Source: Gemmatimonadota bacterium
GTDB taxonomy: Bacteria > Gemmatimonadota > Gemmatimonadetes > JACCXV01 > JAHWKZ01
Reading direction: 5' to 3'
Assembly (NCBI GenBank): GCA_019347645.1
Contig: JAHWKZ010000001.1
Coordinates: forward strand, 1-58,995
Length of the DNA: 58,995 nucleotides
Shown: one piece after another, positions 1,848-50,929 of the stretch
How positions within the stretch are numbered: the first letter of the stretch is position 1
Layout of the letters: every line of letters starts with the position of its first letter
Notes under the pieces: model-generated
Databases searched by the model: none
Seen by the model: the letters and a program-made list of their open reading frames with translations, nothing else
Told to the model about the DNA's origin: nothing
Translations under genes and position numbers: made by a program

Positions 1848-2803
1848 ACCCTCGCCTGTCTCTCCTCGGCTCCGATTCTGTTCCGCCAGTCGTCCAGCAG
1901 ATCGCGAGCCGTCTCCTGCCATCCGATCCGCGGCGACCAACCGGTCGCCGCCTCCACCTTCGACGGGTCGCCCACGATCCATTCGACCTCCGTGGGGCGG
2001 AGCCGCTCCTCGTCCCGCTCGAGCGTCACCGGACGCTCCGCCAGGCCGACCAGCGTCTCCAGCGCGTCCCCGATCGTGCGGCCGATGCCGGAGCAGACGT
2101 TGTACGCCTCGCCGGGCTGGCCGCGCTCCAGGAGCGCCGCATAGGCGCCCACCACGTCCCGGACGTCGGAGAGGTCACGGACCGCGCCGAGCCAACCCAC
2201 CCGGATCGTCGGCGGTCCCGCGCCCGCCTCCGCCAGAGCGATCCTCCGGGCCACCGACGGGAAGACGAACCGCGGATCCTGCCCGGGTCCCGTATGAGGA
2301 AACGCCCGGACCCGGATGACCGGCAGGCCGAACCCCCGGGCGTACTGGTGGCCCAGCAGGTCCTGCGCGGCCTTGCTCGTCCCGTACGGCGTGATCGGCG
2401 CGAGCGGGGCCGACTCGTTCACCGGCCCGTCCTCCGGCTCGCGGCGTCCGTACACCTCGCTCGAGGAGACCACGACCACCCGCGCCGCGTCCGCCTCCCG
2501 GCACGCTTCCAGCACGTGCAGCGTCCCGAGCGCGTTGACCTGGAAGGTGGCGTCGGGATCCTCGAACGCCGTCGCCACGCTCGTCTGCCCCGCGAGGTGG
2601 ACGACCGCGTCGGGCTCCGCCTCCCGGATCGCCCGCGTGGTCGCCGGCGCGTCGGTGACGTCGAGCGCCACGACCTCCGCGGCCCCCTGGACGGCTCCCC
2701 CCGGCGACAGCGAACTCCCGATCACCCCGTGCCCATCGTCCGCGAGCCGGGCGGCCAGATGCCGTCCGACGAAGCCATCGATTCCGGTGACGAAGACGCG
2801 CAT
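1844..2803 (-). CDS. NAD-dependent epimerase/dehydratase (extended SDR, GDP-sugar dehydratase/reductase-like)
   Basis: MRVFVTGIDGFVGRHL Rossmann motif and a YGTSKAAQD YxxxK catalytic motif; 319 aa. Confidence 0.8.
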   Translation of the reverse strand: MRVFVTGIDGFVGRHLAARLADDGHGVIGSSLSPGGAVQGAAEVVALDVTDAPATTRAIREAEPDAVVHLAGQTSVATAFEDPDATFQVNALGTLHVLEACREADAARVVVVSSSEVYGRREPEDGPVNESAPLAPITPYGTSKAAQDLLGHQYARGFGLPVIRVRAFPHTGPGQDPRFVFPSVARRIALAEAGAGPPTIRVGWLGAVRDLSDVRDVVGAYAALLERGQPGEAYNVCSGIGRTIGDALETLVGLAERPVTLERDEERLRPTEVEWIVGDPSKVEAATGWSPRIGWQETARDLLDDWRNRIGAEERQARV

Positions 2804-2891
2804 GCGATCGACGGGACGTGAGGGGCGGGATCAGGGCGCCGACGGAGGATCGAAGATACCCGCCCGCGGCGAAACGGAGCAAGCGCGTAGA

Positions 2892-3221
2892 CTACCCGCC
2901 GCGCGCCGCCCGCGTGGCCTCGGCCGACCACTCGAGGAGCGCATCGGGGTCCTCGAGCACATCGCCCGGCACCTCCCAATAGCGACGCAACGTCTGGCGC
3001 TCGGTCGCCTGGAAGCGTGAGCAGCCTCGGGACTCGTACCGGCTCCGCGTGGCGTCGTCGGTCTTCAGGTAGAGCCGCCCCCGGTGGACGATGCCGAAGA
3101 AGGTGTCGCGTTGATAGAGGCCCCAGCCGCCGAACATCCGCCTGGCCCGCACACCGCCGAGGGGCTCGAGGCGCTCCACCACCCAGTCGGCGAACGAGCG
3201 ATCGCCTGGATCGGCGCTCAT
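2892..3221 (-). CDS. TfoX N-terminal domain protein
   Basis: 109 aa; RRMFGGWGLYQRDTFFGIVHRGRLYLKTDD resembles the TfoX/Sxy N-terminal domain. Confidence 0.6.
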   Translation of the reverse strand: MSADPGDRSFADWVVERLEPLGGVRARRMFGGWGLYQRDTFFGIVHRGRLYLKTDDATRSRYESRGCSRFQATERQTLRRYWEVPGDVLEDPDALLEWSAEATRAARGG

Positions 3222-3222
3222 C

Positions 3223-4446
3223 TCACCGCCCGACTCCGTGGAGCGAGCGAAGCATCTCTCGCTCGCCCTCGCCCAGCGACTGATCGCGTCGATCCATGGC
3301 GGTGGACGCCGCGCGCTCGAACGGCTCCCAACGCACGGGGACCCGGTCCGAGCCGTCGAACCACGAGAATTCCGGGAGGCGCGGCGGGCTCACCGCCCGG
3401 CCGCCGAAGACGTGGGAGCCCGCTCCGATCCGGGCCCCGGTGGTGAGGAGCGTGCCGATTCCGGTCTTCACGTGGTCGCCCAGGAACGCCCCCACTTTCA
3501 GCAGCCCGGTGTCGATCCGTCCCTCCGCCGCCTCGACCCGCACGGACCCGTAGGTGTTCTTCAGATCGCTGGTGACGGTGTCCGCGCCCAGGTTCGTCCA
3601 CTCGCCCAGGACGGAATGACCGACGAACCCGTCGTGGGCCTTGTTCGCGAACCCCTGGAGGATGGTCTGCTCGATCTCCCCACGGACCTTGCACCGCGGA
3701 CCGATCGAGGCGCCGCCGCCGACCTCGCCGCCGAGGACGACGCTCTCCCGGCCCACGTAGAGAGGGCCGCGGAGACGGGCGTGAGACGCGACCCTGGCGC
3801 CCGAGTCGAGGACGATCGGGCCCTCCCGGACGTCGAGGACGACGAAGGGCCCGACCGTCACGTCGGGCCCCACCTTCAGGTCGTCGTCGTCTCCGAGCAG
3901 CACGAGGGGGTCGACGGCGGCGACGGAATCGACGCCCGCGAACCCGACGGCGTCCCGTTCGATCAGGCCGGGATTGGCGGCCATGACCGACCAGATCGCG
4001 TCCAGGAAGAGCCCCTCCACCGACCGCACCGGGAGTCCGAGGCCGGCCAGCCGCTCGACCAGCTCCCGAGGCGAGCCCGGCCCCTCGCCGGCGAGCTCGG
4101 CGGCCGCCCCGCCGTCCAGCCGCCACGCCACGGGCGCGTCGTCGAGCCGCCACTCGGCCGGGTCCTCCCCGAGGTCGAGCTCGGCGGGCGGGACCCAGGA
4201 GGACAGCGCCACGAGCAGGCCTTGCCCGGGATCCGGCCAGCGGTTGAGCACCGGGCGGTCTCCCGAGCGGAAGGCGCAGCCGGTCACCGACTCGTCGCAC
4301 CAGAGAGAGGCGACCCCGCCGACGACCTCCGCCCAGCGGGCCCGGAAGGTCATCGTCCCCGCCAGCAGGTCGGCCACCGGACGCGCGGCGGCCAGCGGCC
4401 AGAAGGACTCGCGGTGGGGATCGACCAGGACGAGCGGCGGCGTCAA
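3223..4446 (-). CDS. putative sugar nucleotidyltransferase with left-handed beta-helix (GlmU-like)
   Basis: 407 aa. The C-terminal half is full of hexapeptide-repeat-like segments (VGPDVTVGPFVVLD, IGPRCKVRGEI, VGHSVLGEWTNLGA, GDHVKTGIGTLL). Confidence 0.6.
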   Translation of the reverse strand: MTPPLVLVDPHRESFWPLAAARPVADLLAGTMTFRARWAEVVGGVASLWCDESVTGCAFRSGDRPVLNRWPDPGQGLLVALSSWVPPAELDLGEDPAEWRLDDAPVAWRLDGGAAAELAGEGPGSPRELVERLAGLGLPVRSVEGLFLDAIWSVMAANPGLIERDAVGFAGVDSVAAVDPLVLLGDDDDLKVGPDVTVGPFVVLDVREGPIVLDSGARVASHARLRGPLYVGRESVVLGGEVGGGASIGPRCKVRGEIEQTILQGFANKAHDGFVGHSVLGEWTNLGADTVTSDLKNTYGSVRVEAAEGRIDTGLLKVGAFLGDHVKTGIGTLLTTGARIGAGSHVFGGRAVSPPRLPEFSWFDGSDRVPVRWEPFERAASTAMDRRDQSLGEGEREMLRSLHGVGR

Positions 4447-4456
4447 GGGCCCGACC

Positions 4457-4939
4457 TCAAGGATCGGAGCGGACCGCGGTGCGCACCGTCCAGGCGCCTT
4501 CGACCCCCTCGGAGACGAGCCGCTCGCGGAGCCGCTCGGCGGCCCCCCGGTCGAGGAAGTCCCCGACCCGCACCTTCCACCACGGCTCGGCCCACTCGAC
4601 GTACACGGGCTGATCGACGAGCCTCTCGATCCTTCCCGCGAAGGCCTGGGCGGAGGCGCGATCGGGATCGGCCAAGACCTGGACGCGCCATCCGGTCGTC
4701 GTGGACGGCGAGACGGGACGCACGGTCCCGGTCGTCACCGTCGCGCGCTCCACCCGGGTGGTGTCGGGGAGGTCTCCGGAGAGCGTGTCGGCCCGGTAGG
4801 TGCCATCGGCCTCCACCCGTCCGACGACGACCGGCTCCTCGGCGGGATCGGCGGCGTCGGGATCCCGCTCCGCGTACCGTGGAGCGCACCCCCACGCCGC
4901 CCACCCCACCAGGGCGAGGGCCACGACCGCGCGCCTCAC
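4457..4939 (-). CDS. SPOR-domain lipoprotein
   Basis: GTG start at 4939 (GTGA overlap with the manC stop) gives VRRAVVALALVGWAAWGC, a signal peptide with lipobox. The C-terminus WRVQVLADPDRASAQAFAGRIE...WWKVRVGDF is SPOR-like. Confidence 0.6.
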   Translation of the reverse strand: MRRAVVALALVGWAAWGCAPRYAERDPDAADPAEEPVVVGRVEADGTYRADTLSGDLPDTTRVERATVTTGTVRPVSPSTTTGWRVQVLADPDRASAQAFAGRIERLVDQPVYVEWAEPWWKVRVGDFLDRGAAERLRERLVSEGVEGAWTVRTAVRSDP

Positions 4940-6003
4940 CGACCCGCCTCCTTCCGACCGGTCACCGAGCGGACGAACGCCTTCAGGTCGTCCAACCGCT
5001 CCCGTGAGACGACCAGCGTCTCGTCGATGGTCCGCACCACGACGACGTCCGAGAGGCCGAGCGCGGAGATGCGTCCCGACTCCGACCACGCGACGAGATC
5101 CGTGCACTCCTCCAGCTCGACGTCACCGACCGCCACGTTGCCCCTCGCATCGAGTTCCATCCAGCGGGCGAGCGCGTCCCAGGAGCCGACATCGTCCCAA
5201 CCCCAGTCGCTGGCGGGAAGGACGGCGGCGCGATCGGTCTGCTGCATGATCCCGTAGTCGATCGAAGTCGACTCGACGGTCGCGTAGAAGCGCTCGAGGG
5301 ACCGTCGCGGACCCTCGTCCCACCCCGTCACGGCGGCCTGGACCGTCTTCCGCATCAGCGGCAGGTGGCGGCCGTACTCCTCGAGGAACACCGAGGCGCG
5401 CCCGCAGAAGAGCCCGCTGTTCCAGTAGTGCCGGCCATCGTTCCAGAGACGACGGACCGTCTCGGCGTCGGGCTTCTCGAGGAAGGCCGCCACCTCGTAC
5501 GCCTCGACCGTCGTCACGTCGAGCGGCTCGCCGCGGCGGACGTAGCCGTAGCCGGTCTCGGGTCGGCTGGGGACGATCCCGAACAGGACGAGGAGGGCGC
5601 GCTCGGCGGCGAGCTGGAAGGCCCCCTGAACGGAGTCACGGAAGGCGTCGACGTCGCCCACGGCGTGATCGGCCGGCAGAGCCAGGAAGACCGCATCCGG
5701 GTCCCGCGCCTCCAGCAGGCCGGCCGCGAGGCCGACCGCGGGCGCGGTATTCTTCCCCTCCGGCTCACCGATCACGTTGCCGCGCGGTACCTCCGGGAGC
5801 TCACGGGCGACCTCGTCGACCAGGGTAGCGTGGGTGAGGACCATCGTCCGCTCCGGGGACACCACCCCGTCGAGCCGGTCCACTGTCTCCCGAAGCAGGG
5901 TGCGATCGGACAGGAGCGGCAGGAGCTGCTTGGGTCGCAGGGGGGTCGAGGCGGGCCAGAACCGCTCGCCCGTTCCGCCGGCGAGGACGACGGCGTAGTT
6001 CAA
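4936..6003 (-). CDS. manC: mannose-1-phosphate guanylyltransferase
   Basis: MNYAVVLAGGTGERFWPASTPLRPKQLLPL N-terminal nucleotidyltransferase signature; 355 aa. Confidence 0.85.
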   Translation of the reverse strand: MNYAVVLAGGTGERFWPASTPLRPKQLLPLLSDRTLLRETVDRLDGVVSPERTMVLTHATLVDEVARELPEVPRGNVIGEPEGKNTAPAVGLAAGLLEARDPDAVFLALPADHAVGDVDAFRDSVQGAFQLAAERALLVLFGIVPSRPETGYGYVRRGEPLDVTTVEAYEVAAFLEKPDAETVRRLWNDGRHYWNSGLFCGRASVFLEEYGRHLPLMRKTVQAAVTGWDEGPRRSLERFYATVESTSIDYGIMQQTDRAAVLPASDWGWDDVGSWDALARWMELDARGNVAVGDVELEECTDLVAWSESGRISALGLSDVVVVRTIDETLVVSRERLDDLKAFVRSVTGRKEAGR

Positions 6004-15823: not shown

Positions 15824-16483
15824 TCAGAACGGACGGCGCCCCGCCACCCGCCGCCTGGCCAGTGGAAACAGCGCCACCAGGCCCGCGGCGCCGAGCAGCG
15901 CCGGGCGGACGGGGTCGAGCGTCTCCTCTCCCGACAGGCCAAGTCCCGCTTCGATCGTCTCGGTGTCGAGACCCGACCAGAAAGCGATCAGGAGCGTCCC
16001 GATCCCCAGCATCGCGACGTACGCCATCGGCAGGCGCGTCGTGGCGAAGAGCTCGGTCGCCAGGACCAGCGGGAGGAGCACCACCGCGAGCGAGATCTGC
16101 TCCGCGACGCTCCGCGCCGCCTCCGACCCCGCCGGGTCGAAGCCGATCACGACGGCGACCACGGCCGCGTGGTAGAGAAGGAAGAGAGTGCCGAGGCCGA
16201 TGAGCTTCCCGAGCACGTAGTCGCCGGGTCTGACTATGTTTGAAGTCAGAAGAGCGTCCAGTCCGAGTTCCCGATCCCGCCCCAGCTCGAAGGAGAGGAG
16301 GAACAGCCAGACGAGCTGCATCCCCACGATCGCCACGTCGGTCCCCACCAGTGGGTCCGACGGCGGCTGGAAGACATAGGCGATCACGCACCCCGCCGGG
16401 TGCGCTATCAGGAGCAGCACGAGAGGGCGCCAACGGAGACGCCGAACCAGCTCGAACCGGACGAGCGGCGGGATCGGGGTCAC
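15824..16483 (-). CDS. ABC-2-like permease, paralog B
   Basis: GTG at 16483 (GTGA overlap with the upstream stop): VTPIPPLVRFELVRRLRWRPLVLLLIA... Multi-TM; the sequence parallels the upstream permease. Confidence 0.65.
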   Translation of the reverse strand: MTPIPPLVRFELVRRLRWRPLVLLLIAHPAGCVIAYVFQPPSDPLVGTDVAIVGMQLVWLFLLSFELGRDRELGLDALLTSNIVRPGDYVLGKLIGLGTLFLLYHAAVVAVVIGFDPAGSEAARSVAEQISLAVVLLPLVLATELFATTRLPMAYVAMLGIGTLLIAFWSGLDTETIEAGLGLSGEETLDPVRPALLGAAGLVALFPLARRRVAGRRPF

Positions 16484-17157
16484 CGTCCTCCGAGACCCGG
16501 CAGCCTGCGCCGGACGAGAGGGAGGAGGATCAGCGTGAGGAGCGGCGAGACCACCAGCGCACGACGCGCCAACGGCCCCAACGTCTCCAATCGGTACGGG
16601 ATCACGGAAAAACCGAACGCCTGCCGGACGAACTCCGGGCCGAGAACCCATGCGACGATCCCCAGGACCACGAAGAGGACGATGACGGCGGCCAGCAACG
16701 GCAGACGAGTCTCCATCGCCGACTCGACGAGCAGGACGAGGGGCAGGAAGTAGAGAGCGAGGAGGAGGAACAGGGCCGCGTGCCAGAGGGCGTGGTCCCC
16801 GGATCCGGCCGAGGCGAGGAGGACGGTCGCCCCGACGAGCCCGCCGATCGCGACGAGAGCGATGGCGAGCGAAGCGACCTTCGCGGCCACGTACCGGTTC
16901 GGGGCGACGAAGTTCGGTACGAGGAGCTCGTCGTACGCTAGGCTCCGGTCGATCCCGAAGCCCGCGTACAGCGTGAAGACCAGCAGCGCCAGTCCGGCGT
17001 CGTCCACCCATCCCAGCGAGCCCGCACCGTAGGCGGCGGGTACGAACACCGCGTAGAGAAGCGCGACGACCTGCTGGGGCCGCGCGCGCGCGCGGCGCAC
17101 GACCTCGAAGCGAATCAGCGCGCCCAGGACCGCCGCCTCGCCGGCACGCGCCGTCAC
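16480..17157 (-). CDS. ABC-2-like permease, paralog A
   Basis: GTG at 17157 (GTGA overlap with the ATPase stop): VTARAGEAAVLGALIRFEVVRRARARP... Multi-TM. Confidence 0.65.
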   Translation of the reverse strand: MTARAGEAAVLGALIRFEVVRRARARPQQVVALLYAVFVPAAYGAGSLGWVDDAGLALLVFTLYAGFGIDRSLAYDELLVPNFVAPNRYVAAKVASLAIALVAIGGLVGATVLLASAGSGDHALWHAALFLLLALYFLPLVLLVESAMETRLPLLAAVIVLFVVLGIVAWVLGPEFVRQAFGFSVIPYRLETLGPLARRALVVSPLLTLILLPLVRRRLPGLGGR

Positions 17158-17789
17158 GGCCGTTCGATCCGGACCCGAACCCCGCCCGCCTCCGCCGGGA
17201 TCCGTTGGTTGGTCGCCACGACGACGACGGCCGTCCGGCACCGCTCTCTCAGGATCTTCGTGAGAGCCTCCTGCCCCGTCTCCGAAAGATGCGAGTACGG
17301 CTCGTCGAGGAGGACGAACGGCGCGGAACGGCGGAGCAGCGATTCGAGCAGCAACCGCTTGGCCTCGCCGGTGCTGAGGTTCGCGACTTTCGTCCGCGGA
17401 TCGGCGAAGGCGGGCCGTAGCGCCTCGCGTCGCGGTGCGCCTCCGGTGAGGGCGTCGACCAGACGGTCCCAGTCCGCCGCCCGCACCTCCGGTGGCAGGC
17501 GCATGGCCGGGTGGTAGTAGAGCGTACGGGTCGACCCGGCGCCGTCGAGCGCCACACGACCGCTCGTCGGCCGCTCGCGTCCGGCCAGCACGCGCAGGAG
17601 CGACGATTTGCCGGCCCCGTTCTCGCCGACCAGCCACGCGATCTCGCCGGCACGGTGGGCCCAATCGAAGCCCTTCAGGATCCAGGTCCGCCGGCGACGA
17701 AGGCCGAGCCCGCAGACCCGCAGCGACGGCACGCCCGACTCCTCGCGGGGGATGACCCTCAGCGCGGCGCGATCGAGCGAGCCGGTCAC
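17154..17789 (-). CDS. ABC transporter ATP-binding protein (atypical motifs)
   Basis: GTG at 17789 (GTGA overlap). Walker A GENGAGKSS, signature LSTGEAKR, Walker B FVLLDEP. The H-loop position reads VVVATNQ (no His). Confidence 0.75.
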   Translation of the reverse strand: MTGSLDRAALRVIPREESGVPSLRVCGLGLRRRRTWILKGFDWAHRAGEIAWLVGENGAGKSSLLRVLAGRERPTSGRVALDGAGSTRTLYYHPAMRLPPEVRAADWDRLVDALTGGAPRREALRPAFADPRTKVANLSTGEAKRLLLESLLRRSAPFVLLDEPYSHLSETGQEALTKILRERCRTAVVVVATNQRIPAEAGGVRVRIERP

Positions 17790-18856
17790 TCGAGCACGCA
17801 CCGATGCCAGCCCGCGTCGTGGTCGATCACGATCGCCGTCCGCGACTTCCCCAGGTACGCGAACCTCTGGGCATTGACGTCGAGGATCCAGGAGCGGAGG
17901 TACTCCAGGTCGGGGGTGGCGCGGATGATCGCCTTTTCGGTCCCGCCCTCGGGGCCGGGTCTTCCCGTACGGGTCAGGTAGAGGTAGTCGCCGCTCGCCC
18001 GGTCGTGACTCGCCGCCAGGACGGGGGTGGCGATCTCGTCGATCTCCTCCTTCTCGAACAGCTCGCTCGGTACCTTGCCCAACCGCCGGCTGGCGGCCCG
18101 GGGGACGGGGACCGTGGTCTCGCGGACGGTGAACCCGCTCCCGCGCGGCCGAATCACGAAAGCCCTGGAGGTGATGAGCTGATGAGCGGCGATCACGGTG
18201 CCGTCGCCGAGCGGGGTCAGCTCGATCAGGTTCGCGAGCGCCTCCACCCGGAGGTCGTGGAAGGGCGCGACAGGGGTCTCCAGGGGCCGGAACGCCCCCG
18301 CGTCCGCGTCCAGCACGTGGACCAGCCTCGCCACCGCGCCGCCTCGCGCGAGGGGGAACGCCGCCATCAGCACCCCCGACGGGCCCGATCGAACGACGCT
18401 GGGTGGGACGTCGGTGCGCAACACTCCCCGATCACGGCCCGCGTGATCGAGGATCTTGATCTGACGGCGTCCGACGTCGGTGATGTAGAGGAGCGAGTCG
18501 TCGACCAGCGCCACCGAGCGGGGCTGCTTCACGCCCGACGGGCCATTCTCCTCGAACTCGACCTCGAAGAGGGGTGTGGCGTCCGAACGATAATGGACCA
18601 CCCGCCGGTCGAGGCCGTAGAGGACCAGGAACGTGGAGTCCGAGGTGGCGACCAGATCCTCGACGACGCCGGCGGCCTCCGACGGTGCGTCCTGCCGGAC
18701 GCACGCGATCTTCGTGGAGCGTTCGACGAAGCCGTCGATCGTCCGGGGCGCGAGCCCCGCCTCTCCCTCGCCGCACCCGATGCCGAGGAGGAGCGCGACG
18801 GCGATGGAGAAGCGGGGGGCCTCGTTCGGTGTCCTCACCGTGGGCACGAGGGCCAA
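17786..18856 (-). CDS. beta-propeller (NHL-like repeat) lipoprotein
   Basis: MALVPTVRTPNEAPRFSIAVALLLGIGCGEG lipoprotein signal. Repeated segments such as DSLLYITDVGRRQIKILDHAGRD and DSTFLVLYGLDRRVVHY. Confidence 0.6.
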   Translation of the reverse strand: MALVPTVRTPNEAPRFSIAVALLLGIGCGEGEAGLAPRTIDGFVERSTKIACVRQDAPSEAAGVVEDLVATSDSTFLVLYGLDRRVVHYRSDATPLFEVEFEENGPSGVKQPRSVALVDDSLLYITDVGRRQIKILDHAGRDRGVLRTDVPPSVVRSGPSGVLMAAFPLARGGAVARLVHVLDADAGAFRPLETPVAPFHDLRVEALANLIELTPLGDGTVIAAHQLITSRAFVIRPRGSGFTVRETTVPVPRAASRRLGKVPSELFEKEEIDEIATPVLAASHDRASGDYLYLTRTGRPGPEGGTEKAIIRATPDLEYLRSWILDVNAQRFAYLGKSRTAIVIDHDAGWHRCVLE

Positions 18857-19014
18857 CGGACGTCGCCGTCCCGGCAGGGAGTCGGGTCCAGTCTCTTCTT
18901 CAGGCGCTCGTCCGGCTCGACCTCGCGGTTCCGGCTCGCTCGCGAAGGGAGGGCGATCGGCAGCGAGACGACCGCGAGCAGCATCGGGCGGATCGCTCGG
19001 CGGATCATCGACAT
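18835..19014 (-). CDS. small secreted peptide precursor (59 aa, 2 Cys)
   Basis: GGAGGAGGG RBS directly upstream of ATG 19014. MSMIRRAIRPMLLAVVSLPIALPSRA signal, then SRNREVEPDERLKKRLDPTPCRDGDVRWPSCPR. The 3' end overlaps the lipoprotein start by 22 nt. Confidence 0.55.
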   Translation of the reverse strand: MSMIRRAIRPMLLAVVSLPIALPSRASRNREVEPDERLKKRLDPTPCRDGDVRWPSCPR

Positions 19015-19083
19015 TCTTCCCTCCTCCTGTCGGAGTTCGATCGGAGGCTGACGGTGGCGGCGCCGTAGGAGCGGGAGGGGGGC

Positions 19084-19123
19084 GACGATCGTCGGGCTCG
19101 TTCGACGGTCTCCGACGATCGTC
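19084..19123 (-). promoter_or_regulatory. 12-bp perfect stem-loop / twin GACGATCGTC palindromes between the two peptide genes
   Basis: GACGATCGTCGG (19084-19095) pairs with CCGACGATCGTC (19112-19123), with a 16-nt loop. It begins 10 nt after the stop of the 71-aa peptide gene. Confidence 0.45.
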
Positions 19124-19132
19124 ACCGCGGGC

Positions 19133-19348
19133 TCAGAAGCCCGTCCTGCCCTTGACGCAGCCGACGAACGACGCGAAGCACTCGATGAACTTGAGCTCCC
19201 GGATGAGCCAGTTCGACTTCTGCCAGGCGATGATCTGGCATCCCTCGTAGTCCTCGGTGCAGCCGGCCAACGCCGGGGCGGGGGCGACCGAACTGGCCCC
19301 GACCGCCACCAGTGCGGCCAGCAGGATACTTCGTCCACTCGACCTCAT
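19133..19348 (-). CDS. small secreted or lipidated cysteine-rich peptide precursor (71 aa, 4 Cys)
   Basis: GAAGGAGGGAAGG RBS before ATG 19348. MRSSGRSILLAALVAVGASSVAPAPALAGC signal (LAGC could be a lipobox). Mature part CTEDYEGCQIIAWQKSNWLIRELKFIECFASFVGCVKGRTGF. High GC3. Confidence 0.65.
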   Translation of the reverse strand: MRSSGRSILLAALVAVGASSVAPAPALAGCTEDYEGCQIIAWQKSNWLIRELKFIECFASFVGCVKGRTGF

Positions 19349-19657
19349 CCTTCCCTCCTTCGTCTGGGTTGGAGAACGGGAAGGCGGCCGCGCGCTCCCT
19401 CCGCCAGCCGGACCGGCCCCCTCCCTGGCCGATCCTTTCAGATTCGGCGCGCGGCGCGCCTTCGATACCGTCGACGACCGGCCGCTCCACTCCCCGGATG
19501 CTTCCGGCCGTGACGCGCGGATCCAGGGGGAGCACGATCGGGGCCGTTCCGGAATCGAAGCCGGGGGCGAATCGGCAACGCGTTGATCGGGAAGGGTTTA
19601 GGGACCGAGGGAGCGGGGCGGGACGGGGCGGCGCCCGATCGGGCGCGGGCTCGACTG

Positions 19658-49930: not shown

Positions 49931-50929
49931 TCAGGCCTCGATCTCGTACCGTTTGACCTTGTTGAGGAGGGACTTGTAGCTGATCTCGAGGTCGGCGGCT
50001 GCCCGCTTCTTGTTCCACTTCGCCGCCTGGAGCGCGCGTTCGATCGCCTGCGACTCGATCCGGGCGACTACCCGGGCCACCATCTGCTTGAGGGGCAGGC
50101 CGGAGTCGAGGATCTCCTCATCGGTGGAGCCACCCGGTCCTTTCTTGCTGCCCAGCTCCTCGCGGATCGTTTCCTCGTCTTCGATCACCAGGAAGCGCCG
50201 GATCACCCGCTCGAGCTCGCGGACGTTGCCCGGCCAGCGGTACCCCTGCAGGAACTTGACGAACCCGGTCCGCAGGACGCGGATCTTCGAACCGTAGAAC
50301 GTGCCGTACTTCTGAAGGATGTGGTTGGCGAGCAGCGGGACGTCCTCCGGACGGTCGCGCAGCGGCGGGACCTCGATCCGAACGGCTCCACCGACCGCCC
50401 CCCACTCCTTCTCGAGCTTGTCGAGCGCGGAGTTTCCTAGCGACGGCTGCTCGCAGGAGAGGACGAACCGCGGCTCCGAGCCGTCCGCGGCGCGCTGACG
50501 CTTCCACTCGCGCAGCCGCTCGCTCAGCTCTGCGGGAAGGGATTCGATGCCGTGGATGTAGAGGGTGCCCCCGCCGACCGCCTCGAGCTTGCCGCCGTCA
50601 CCGCCGTCGAACAGCTCCCTTTCGATCGCGGCGCTCGGGATCGCGTAGCAGTTGAGCGAGGCGAGGGGACGCGAGGCCCGACTCGAGAGATCGTGGATCC
50701 CGCGGGCGAGGATCTCCTTGCCGACGCCGCGCTCGCCGCACAGCACCACGGTCAGCGAAGTATCGGCCACCTGGCCGAGGCGCTCGCGCGCGGCGATCAC
50801 GCGCTCGTCGACGCTCAGCAGGAAGTTCGGATGACCGCCGATCTCCCAGTAGGCGGACGCCGGGGGGTCGGGGCTACCGTCCGTTCGCGCGGGGGATGCG
50901 GGCTCGGCAGTCACGGCGCGGCTAGACAA
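49931..50929 (-). CDS. sigma54-activator-like AAA+/Fis-HTH regulator lacking a GAFTGA loop and the Walker B acidic pair
   Basis: VVLCGERGVGKE Walker A, VPPLRDRPEDVPLLANHIL, PGNVRELERV, and a C-terminal IERALQAAKWNKKRAAADLEISYKSLLNKVKRY HTH. There is no receiver domain. TTG start at 50929, or GTG at 50914. Confidence 0.8.
   Translation of the reverse strand: MSSRAVTAEPASPARTDGSPDPPASAYWEIGGHPNFLLSVDERVIAARERLGQVADTSLTVVLCGERGVGKEILARGIHDLSSRASRPLASLNCYAIPSAAIERELFDGGDGGKLEAVGGGTLYIHGIESLPAELSERLREWKRQRAADGSEPRFVLSCEQPSLGNSALDKLEKEWGAVGGAVRIEVPPLRDRPEDVPLLANHILQKYGTFYGSKIRVLRTGFVKFLQGYRWPGNVRELERVIRRFLVIEDEETIREELGSKKGPGGSTDEEILDSGLPLKQMVARVVARIESQAIERALQAAKWNKKRAAADLEISYKSLLNKVKRYEIEA

Follow-up and report, generated by a model that had tools for sequence, protein, structure and literature searches.

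Background

Small helical peptides that are exported by the Sec system, stapled by disulfides and accompanied by ATP-binding cassette (ABC) proteins are a kind of bacterial product that is already known. Here, we investigated a 71-codon gene on the minus strand at positions 19133–19348 of a 58,995-nucleotide stretch of DNA from a Gemmatimonadota bacterium (GenBank assembly GCA_019347645.1, contig JAHWKZ010000001.1, positions 1 to 58,995; this whole stretch is referred to as the window), together with the operon that begins with it. By sequence comparison its product is a member of a new, unannotated family of small, putatively exported proteins with two mirrored C-x6-C pairs. An original prediction made from the letters of the window had described it as a 71-aa precursor with such a pattern; the operon partners, the probable link to sigma54 and the conserved leader were not part of that description.

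The closest functional analogue of the window peptide appears to be STb of Escherichia coli, a 71-aa Sec prepeptide with a mature part of 48 aa, in which DsbA makes the nested disulfides C10–C48 and C21–C36 and which is taken from the periplasm by the ABC-driven MacAB-TolC system (PMC6356903, PMC5985334). The two have in common the 71-aa Sec prepeptide, four cysteines (with disulfides that are predicted in the window peptide) and an ABC partner. However, a BLASTP comparison with an STb sequence gave E 1.3 and thus no similarity, no Pfam match links them, the cysteines are spaced differently, STb has no dedicated operon, and the family of the window peptide is anionic. MacB also has a large periplasmic domain and works with an adaptor and TolC, whereas the operon of the window peptide encodes a minimal ATPase and small transmembrane (TM) proteins with neither an adaptor nor an outer-membrane factor.

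In structural principle, the closest counterparts would be the twin CX9C/CX3C (CHCH) proteins of the mitochondrial intermembrane space, whose antiparallel helices are stapled together by two nested disulfides (PMC12114033). The likeness is one of fold and not of homology: each helix carries one cysteine pair at helical-repeat spacing (here i/i+7), and the register i+j is constant in the AlphaFold2 model. In contrast to the CHCH proteins, the window peptide has a spacing of 6 rather than 3 or 9 and no Pfam CHCH match, is bacterial, would be matured by Sec and Dsb instead of Mia40, and has a dedicated operon. The plant alpha-hairpinins (CX3C...CX3C) follow the same principle of two stapled helices.

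The closest operon logic is found in the LanFEG/LanI systems (e.g., NisFEG/NisI), in which a secreted peptide is combined with a lipoprotein and with an ABC transporter whose subunits are a single ATPase and a pair of paralogous 6-TM permeases; the likeness lies in architecture alone. In the window, the peptide gene likewise comes first and is followed by genes for a putative lipoprotein, one ATPase and two paralogous 6-TM proteins. In contrast to the lantibiotic type, the peptide would be unmodified and Sec-dependent, LanB/C/M/T/P genes are absent, the hosts are diderm and control is probably of the sigma54 type; furthermore, the lipoprotein is an NHL propeller unlike LanI, and the TM proteins show nothing beyond a sub-threshold match to ABC2_membrane_3 (E 0.022). 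Class II microcins and Sec-dependent class II bacteriocins, such as microcin L, lactococcin 972 and enterocin P, are ribosomal products that are also small, unmodified, disulfide-containing and co-encoded with ABC proteins, and are often anionic in Gram-negative producers. The window operon differs from them in that it has no double-glycine leader, no C39-peptidase ABC exporter, no adaptor and no TolC, and in that its ATPase is a stand-alone protein of ~200 aa; none of the bacteriocin hidden Markov models in Pfam and NCBIfam matched the window peptide. Entericidins and Lpp resemble it in precursor size and in the canonical LAGC, but in the window family this lipobox is not conserved while the four mirrored cysteines are invariant. 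As judged from sequence, the window peptide is not a member of the STb, CHCH or LanI families.

The peptide gene and its family

The gene and the parts of its product are located as follows.

19133–19348, minus strand: coding sequence of the 71-aa pre-protein (ATG to TGA, 71 codons), from the list of open reading frames (ORFs) and its translation
19265–19348, minus strand: signal peptide, residues 1–28, by inspection of the translation
19136–19264, minus strand: mature 43-aa peptide GCTEDYEGC...CFASFVGCVKGRTGF, residues 29–71
19349–19360, minus strand: Shine-Dalgarno region AAGGAGGGAAGG, with its AGGAGG core 5 nt from the ATG

An initial search gave three relatives at 63–75% identity, all of which keep the four cysteines. 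The family was then collected by an exhaustive profile search and a second, word-indexed search with a wider alignment, and comprises 104 small proteins of 53–79 aa plus one 125-aa over-call. The window peptide has its cysteines at C30, C37, C57 and C64 (C-x6-C, 19 residues, C-x6-C), and the mirrored arrangement noticed in the original prediction is kept as C-x6-C-x(18-20)-C-x6-C in 104 of the 104 members. In an alignment of 25 sequences with 25–75% identity, these four residues form the sole invariant columns. Because the cysteines alone are invariant and their spacing is kept throughout, the pattern is not a product of chance, and the scenario in which homologues would lack the cysteines is contradicted by homologues that retain all four.

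According to the source names, the hosts are metagenome-assembled genomes of Gemmatimonadetes/Longimicrobiales and Acidobacteria (Vicinamibacterales), and one member comes from an organism with DNA of 35% GC (locus L016). No member among the 104 has a Pfam domain or a name beyond “hypothetical protein”. The window peptide itself has no match in Pfam (E ≤ 0.1) or NCBIfam, the family profile found no match among the PDB sequences, and a peptide alignment (A1) retrieved no locus from the GTDB genomes. No description of such a family was found in the literature on twin CX6C proteins, Gemmatimonadetes bacteriocins and NVEALA/propeller pairs. For the mature 43-mer, the calculated values are 4934.7 Da, pI 6.3 and net charge 0, and the family as a whole is anionic, with a negative net charge in 98 of the 104 members.

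We conclude that the 71-codon ORF represents a real gene that is conserved. It translates to exactly the sequence given in the original prediction, which had also estimated the mature part at about 61% GC; the measured value is 61.1%, as compared to 70.8% for the whole window. The GC contents of the three codon positions in the mature part are 0.43/0.43/0.98 (third position 97.6%), as against a third-position GC content (GC3) of ~0.90 in long neighboring genes. This signature is confined to the peptide frame and absent from the other frames of the interval, so the peptide frame is the translated one. Shine-Dalgarno sites of the GGAGG type occur at the same place in the related loci L003 and L004. 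Pairwise ratios of nonsynonymous to synonymous substitution rates (dN/dS), calculated for the c-region of the signal peptide and the mature part between the window and loci L001, L003 and L004, are 0.24–0.37 (dS 0.46–0.66) and therefore indicate purifying selection on the peptide. The earlier impression of a host-adapted gene is thus borne out by GC3, the Shine-Dalgarno site, dN/dS, conservation and synteny.

The N-terminus of the pre-protein suggests export by Sec. By inspection it divides into an n-region MRSSGRS, an h-region ILLAALVAVGASSV and a c-region APAPALA before the glycine, with an AxA at positions −3/−1. Among the 103 N-terminally complete members, for which all counts of AxA sites and lipoboxes were made, 83 have an A-x-A site 1–5 residues ahead of the first cysteine. 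The sites of other members (a slash marks the presumed cleavage) include ARA/DC, ANA/NC, AFA/QRC, ASA/SGPDC and AEA/ARAVPC, and in the sister locus L001 the operon also encodes a paralogue with ...PARA/DCEDNYSVC. Cleavage by signal peptidase I (SPase I) after Ala28 (ALA/GC), which yields a free 43-residue peptide rather than a lipoprotein, is most likely on this comparison.

Predicted fold of the mature peptide

An AlphaFold2 model based on the 25-sequence alignment has a mean predicted local distance difference test score (pLDDT) of 85, with values of 95–97 over residues 31–60 and ~95 in the mature part. It consists of the signal-peptide helix followed by helices 25–42 and 47–69, which are joined by a turn at Q43–N46. 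The turn residues are K44-S45-N46 in the window peptide and K-P-N in two close homologues. Variation in the length of the loop between the cysteine pairs (18–20 residues) is restricted to this inter-helix turn; the shorter members have lost one residue exactly there and have a Gly at the N46 position.

The i/i+7 spacing of each cysteine pair corresponds to two helical turns and places both cysteines on the same face of the helix. The residue numbers add up to equal sums (30+64 = 37+57), therefore the register fits two rungs of an antiparallel hairpin. The best-conserved positions other than the cysteines (Y34, A41, I55, F/Y61 and G63) lie on the cysteine-bearing faces. Local C30–C37 and C57–C64 bridges are ruled out in the model, because the helix is continuous across each C-x6-C motif. 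The mature peptide is thus probably a helix-turn-helix hairpin, for which two nested inter-helix disulfides, C30–C64 and C37–C57, are predicted. A search of the model against the PDB with Foldseek returned only non-significant helical hairpins (E ≥ 4).

The two-disulfide helical hairpin proposed in the original prediction is accordingly supported by the invariant mirrored cysteines, by insertions and deletions that occur at the turn only and by AlphaFold2, with the disulfides themselves deduced. The accompanying description of the stretch between the cysteine pairs as amphipathic applies only to a small degree, with helical hydrophobic moments of 0.27 (second helix) and 0.03 (first helix).

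The operon and its conservation

The peptide gene opens a run of co-directional minus-strand genes, an operon of ~3.5 kb, after which ispH follows. Its other members are listed below.

18835–19014, minus strand: 59-codon ORF with its own strong Shine-Dalgarno sequence (GGAGGAGGG), a signal-like N-terminus MSMIRRAIRP and a GC3 of 0.87
17786–18838, minus strand: 350-aa probable lipoprotein with a six-bladed NHL-type beta-propeller, from AlphaFold2, Foldseek and a profile search
17154–17801, minus strand: minimal ABC ATPase of ~200–215 aa (Pfam ABC_tran, E 1.8e-17)
~16480–17130 and 15824–16474, minus strand: two paralogous membrane proteins of ~216 aa with 5–6 predicted TM segments each, from hydropathy

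Thirteen of the 13 loci with enough flanking sequence contain the same module, i.e., a peptide, a protein of 290–460 aa, an ABC ATPase and one or two 5–6-TM proteins. The gene order of the window is repeated in the sister loci L001 and L003. Five further loci (L008 and L010–L013) encode a peptide, a propeller protein (31–38% identical), an ATPase (45–54%) and a TM protein, and in L015 these genes are joined by another peptide gene that closes the operon. Four more loci, L016, L005, L007 and L017, encode a peptide (two in L007), a 290–460 aa protein without detectable relation to the propeller, a TM protein and an ATPase. When the propeller protein was used as the query, four GTDB loci were retrieved and each has a family peptide 100–150 nt upstream. 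Every relative that has the downstream genes also keeps the peptide ORF, contrary to the case, considered beforehand, of close relatives with those genes alone. Second, divergent paralogues of the peptide (~30–50% identical) are present in the same operon at three loci: between propeller and ATPase in L001 (1834–2040), directly after the first peptide in L007 (4548–4748) and at the operon end in L015 (6587–6802). The wider genomic neighborhood of the module differs between loci, and the module was rarely encountered among the 5.8 billion proteins of the database searched. Since the L016 contig has 35% GC, the module is not confined to high-GC soil phyla; in that locus (2337–5623) the partner protein has 460 aa and the ATPase is a longer one of 293 aa.

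In the propeller protein, a hydrophobic stretch precedes Cys22, which is invariant, and the protein is therefore a probable lipoprotein. Its AlphaFold2 model is all-beta with a predicted template modeling score (pTM) of 0.86; Foldseek relates it to TRIM/Brat NHL domains at E ~1e-10, and among PDB sequences the family profile finds PknD (its sensor domain) and the Pizza proteins, which derive from NHL repeats, with E values down to 9e-8. At threshold it has no Pfam match, and no significant NCBIfam family was found for it. We presume that this lipoprotein is the binding partner of the peptide.

The best NCBIfam match of the ATPase is CcmA, below the cutoff of that family, and its nearest PDB sequences are generic ABC proteins. 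Its Walker A and Walker B motifs are intact and the signature is LSTGE, with Asn in place of the H-loop His (ATNQ). The same replacement occurs in 7 of the 8 loci of the propeller type, while the His is retained in ATPases of the Acidobacteria type. The two membrane proteins, which are 34% identical to each other and syntenic in L001, L003, L008 and L010–L013, are presumed to be the permease halves of the ABC transporter, and one of them gives the weak match to ABC2_membrane_3 mentioned above.

The stop codon of the 59-codon ORF overlaps the GTG start of the propeller gene (GTGA). Its conservation with the L001 counterpart (L001_566) is limited to the N-terminal part, and no significant Pfam or NCBIfam family was found for the 59-aa product. 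A separate ORF of this kind is absent from L003, whose propeller protein instead starts with a similar sequence (MPLIRRAIAP); the N-terminal pattern M..I.RA..P is part of the propeller protein in L003 and in most homologues. Instead of being a gene in its own right, the ORF may represent a split or duplicated 5′ end of the propeller gene or serve as a coupling ORF.

Directly upstream of the operon in the window (19658 to ~23000, minus strand) lie genes for an SbcC-like protein (AAA_23/AAA_27) and an SbcD-like nuclease, which are not conserved as neighbors elsewhere. In the Acidobacteria-type loci (L005 5463–6457, L007 1739–2578, L017 449–1383), genes for a GspH-like pseudopilin and a PilZ-domain protein are situated just upstream of a sigma54-activator gene, and a 550–750 aa protein with a CarboxypepD_reg domain is encoded after the ATPase. 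Genes for PTR2/POT peptide transporters, transcribed divergently, are found upstream of the activator in L008 and L010–L013. A radical-SAM gene precedes the activator in Longimicrobiales-type loci (L010 635–1663, L011 165–1166 and L013 58–1077, all minus strand). A ribosomally synthesized and post-translationally modified peptide matured by this enzyme was considered and rejected, as neither L008 nor the window has this gene and we judge its position to reflect lineage synteny only. A pair resembling the small subunit and propeller of quinoprotein amine dehydrogenase was likewise discarded, because partners of the radical-SAM, protease or haem kind are lacking and the peptide carries a signal for Sec.

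Candidate regulatory elements around the peptide gene

Three elements flank the coding sequence.

19531–19546, minus strand: sigma54-type −24/−12 motif CGGCCC-CGATC-GTGCT (CGGCCCCGATCGTGCT), 183–198 nt upstream of the ATG
19380–19515, minus strand: conserved non-coding block of 136 nt between the sigma54-like motif and the Shine-Dalgarno region, from alignment and RNAalifold
19081–19126, minus strand: stem-loop of ~15 bp directly 3′ of the peptide stop codon (RNAfold, −35 kcal/mol for the 75 nt that hold it)

In eight loci (L005, L007, L008, L010–L013 and L017) a gene for a sigma54 activator lies directly upstream of the peptide gene, and the activators of the propeller-type loci consist of AAA+ and helix-turn-helix (HTH) domains only. 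Downstream of this gene, 94–118 nt before the peptide start codon, L008 and L010–L013 share the motif YGGYCY-N5-STGCY (GG-N10-GC), which is at about 7883–7898 in L008. Derived from these five loci and then scanned on both strands of the 59-kb window, the motif gave 3 matches where 2.3 are expected by chance. One of the three is the site at 19531–19546, which is conserved in L001 and L004. On these grounds the operon is probably under sigma54 control, with transcription from the putative 19531–19546 promoter. Another gene of the sigma54-activator type (AAA+), 28–34% identical to the cluster-linked activators, is located 30 kb away (~49937–50797, minus strand); its presence indicates that the organism uses sigma54.

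The 136-nt block is 88–92% identical among the window, L001 and L004, as compared to 70–79% for the coding sequence and 53–59% for the flanking non-coding DNA. In a comparison of the three sequences, RNAalifold folds it into two helical domains, and the few substitutions in the block include compensatory changes at three pairs (16/45, 93/115 and 98/111). It could not be read as a small coding ORF, as it has no codon-position GC signal and its substitutions are not periodic. The block is single-copy in the window, its matches to Rfam are at chance level only (E > 2), and with a covariance model of the leader, copies were found in the clade of the window only. A scan of metagenomes with 22 invariant bases of the leader gave one match, which lies inside an unrelated coding region and was set aside as chance. 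We consider the block a candidate structured 5′ leader RNA. Alternatively, it could be a promoter-proximal regulator-binding region, with the promoter at the invariant TGGCGG-N5-GCGC at −58; this position, inside the block, holds a second GG-N10-GC element (TGGCGGAGGGAGCGCG).

Strong hairpins like that at 19081–19126 also occur 3′ of the peptide genes in L001, L003, L004, L005, L007 and L008, i.e., in every other case examined. They are GC-rich and lack a T-run, and while their sequences are unrelated between lineages, their position is conserved. From its predicted structure, the element in the window looks like an attenuator or an mRNA-stabilizing hairpin, an arrangement that resembles those in which a small product is needed in excess over the products of the downstream genes.

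Discussion

As an overall explanation of the peptide operon, we favor the following scheme with somewhat less than even confidence; within it, the account of the gene and its product is well supported and that of its expression partly so. A transcript from the sigma54-type promoter would carry the conserved, structured leader of ~170 nt, and the 3′ hairpin would make the peptide message more abundant than that of the downstream genes. Sec would export the 71-aa pre-protein and SPase I would free the 43-residue peptide of ~4.93 kDa, which would fold in the oxidizing periplasm into a hairpin stapled by C30–C64 and C37–C57. The peptide would then be an abundant extracytoplasmic product rather than a stoichiometric subunit of a machine. 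The NHL-propeller lipoprotein would bind it on the outer side of the inner membrane, and the ABC transporter, composed of the ATPase and two 6-TM halves, would spend ATP on keeping the membrane of the producer free of it. To cross the outer membrane, the peptide would have to rely on a generic route, as STb does in E. coli.

The role that this scheme assigns to the peptide, namely a Sec-dependent effector similar to bacteriocins or microcins with self-protection in the style of LanI/LanFEG, is speculative and put forward only tentatively. We propose it because operons contain tandem paralogous peptides (1–2 per operon in L001, L007 and L015) and because the ATPase, the two paralogous 6-TM proteins and the lipoprotein copy the LanFEG/LanI layout. 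A product made in excess is suggested by the strong 3′ hairpin that follows every peptide gene, and an accessory trait is to be expected because the module is rare and occurs in varied genomic neighborhoods.

Several observations weigh against the effector model or the scheme around it. The family is anionic (98/104), unlike classical cationic membrane-active peptides, and the peptide evolves as slowly as the ATPase (62–74% identity vs 49–51% for the propeller) and without the arms-race pattern of many toxins. Although the producers have two membranes (diderm), genes for an outer-membrane exporter, an adaptor or a protease are missing from the operon. The Asn in the H-loop suggests that the ATPase hydrolyzes ATP slowly, and the membrane proteins have no significant Pfam or NCBIfam family. 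In the window, no sigma54-activator gene adjoins the operon. Furthermore, hhalign detected no homology between the window-type propeller and the ~300-aa protein of the Acidobacteria-type modules, and a profile of the latter had no match in the PDB.

Some of these same features would suit a periplasmic mini-protein for stress or handling, that is, an inducible small binder, chaperone or accessory of the propeller-ABC complex and no weapon, which by analogy we regard as an unlikely but serious alternative. Sigma54-controlled ZraP, together with Spy and CpxP, are small helical proteins of the envelope stress response to which such a product can be likened. Control of the operon by sigma54 and an activator, Sec export in diderm bacteria with no outer-membrane exporter in the operon, the slow, ATPase-like evolution and the anionic charge all agree with a resident of the periplasm, and the many conserved, exposed aromatic and hydrophobic residues would be well suited to protein-protein binding. 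However, a stoichiometric partner would need neither an attenuator hairpin nor tandem paralogues, and a module that is rare and found in varied contexts is not core to the lineages that carry it. Searches with Pfam, NCBIfam, Foldseek and the PDB profile revealed no similarity to any known periplasmic chaperone family.

That the four cysteines are the sole absolutely conserved residues could also point to a thiol site, in which the C30/C64 and C37/C57 layers would either stay reduced and bind soft metals, for example Cu(I), Hg(II) or Zn, or switch between the dithiol and the disulfide form, with the ABC transporter serving detoxification. A copper-binding periplasmic helical dimer (7vw1) is among the fold matches, although not significantly (E 7.6–8.6), and the best family matches of the ATPase, all below cutoff, are exporters of the CcmA/CydDC type that are tied to periplasmic redox biology. 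Nevertheless, we consider such a site improbable: the peptide has no His, Met or CxxC metal motifs, none of the 13 loci contains metal-resistance genes, and the cysteine pairs are ~10 Å apart along the helix, which would make a single tetrathiolate site impossible. Exported cysteine pairs in the periplasm of diderm bacteria are, moreover, normally oxidized by Dsb, which counts against free thiols.

A signaling function has similarly little probability in our estimation. Here, the propeller-ABC complex would sense the hairpin and feed back on the sigma54 activator in a circuit that reports quorum or envelope status. The activators of the propeller-type loci, with AAA+ and HTH domains only like PspF, need a trans-acting input, NHL propellers serve as extracytoplasmic sensor domains in proteins such as PknD, and the degenerate H-loop of the ATPase could suit a signaling ABC protein better than a pumping one. 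Yet the module encodes no kinase or anti-activator, and in the window the activator is not adjacent.

With respect to maturation, the original prediction had left undecided whether the precursor is cleaved by SPase I or becomes a tiny lipoprotein. For the window sequence this ambiguity is real, as it satisfies both AxA and a lipobox rule of the PROSITE PS51257 type, {DERK}(6)-[LIVMFWSTAG](2)-[LIVMFYSTAGCQ]-[AGS]-C with the Cys at 15–35 and K/R in the first 7 residues: it has LAGC, no charge from −5 to −10, an Arg among the first 7 residues and the Cys at 30. Lgt and signal peptidase II would then process LAGC and leave an anchored 42-residue peptide with Cys30 lipidated and three free cysteines. 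A Gly at −1 is also frequent in the family (81/103). The comparison across the family nonetheless favors the free SPase I peptide and makes the lipoprotein quite improbable, since the rule fits only 18 of the 103 members and 2 of the 5 closest relatives, of which P0005 has VEAGC, while in P0002 and P0004 position −6 is occupied by E or R. Elsewhere in the family, position −1 is taken by D, E, N, R, P or V, position −3 by E, or the AxA is followed by a linker of 2–5 residues, and the L001 paralogue from the same operon has ARA/DC. The Pro-rich c-region between h-region and Cys (APAPA, often PRP) is typical of SPase I substrates, and lipidation of Cys30 would leave an odd number of three cysteines in a family defined by two mirrored pairs.

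The last alternative, a chance ORF of the kind that GC-rich genomes yield in long and spurious form (several overlap the region on both strands), has practically no probability and is refuted by the comparative data, i.e., the GC3 of 0.98 in the peptide frame only, the Shine-Dalgarno site, purifying selection, 104 homologues with invariant cysteines and synteny.

Implications

Soils are rich in Gemmatimonadota and Vicinamibacterales, but these bacteria are difficult to grow in culture and their secreted peptides are barely known. In its widest form, which we hold with considerable doubt, our interpretation would be that twin-CX6C alpha-hairpin peptides matured by Sec and Dsb are a new class and act as the dedicated effector or signal of a sigma54-controlled envelope system, made of peptide, propeller lipoprotein and ABC transporter, in soil Gemmatimonadota and Acidobacteriota, which in the clade of the window would also be governed by a new leader RNA. 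If true, this would provide either a new class of bacteriocins or microcins for these phyla or a new envelope signaling circuit. The family can be recognized by its signature, a signal peptide followed by C-x6-C-x18-20-C-x6-C, and by its set of partners, i.e., the propeller lipoprotein, the ABC proteins and sigma54. Independently of the peptide, the 136-nt leader, with its higher conservation than that of the gene behind it, may be a new regulatory RNA. Should the peptide be an antagonistic effector, it would offer a new, small and chemically simple antimicrobial scaffold that is accessible to synthesis, with 43 residues and two disulfides; should it instead be a periplasmic partner or a signal, it would mark a new envelope system.

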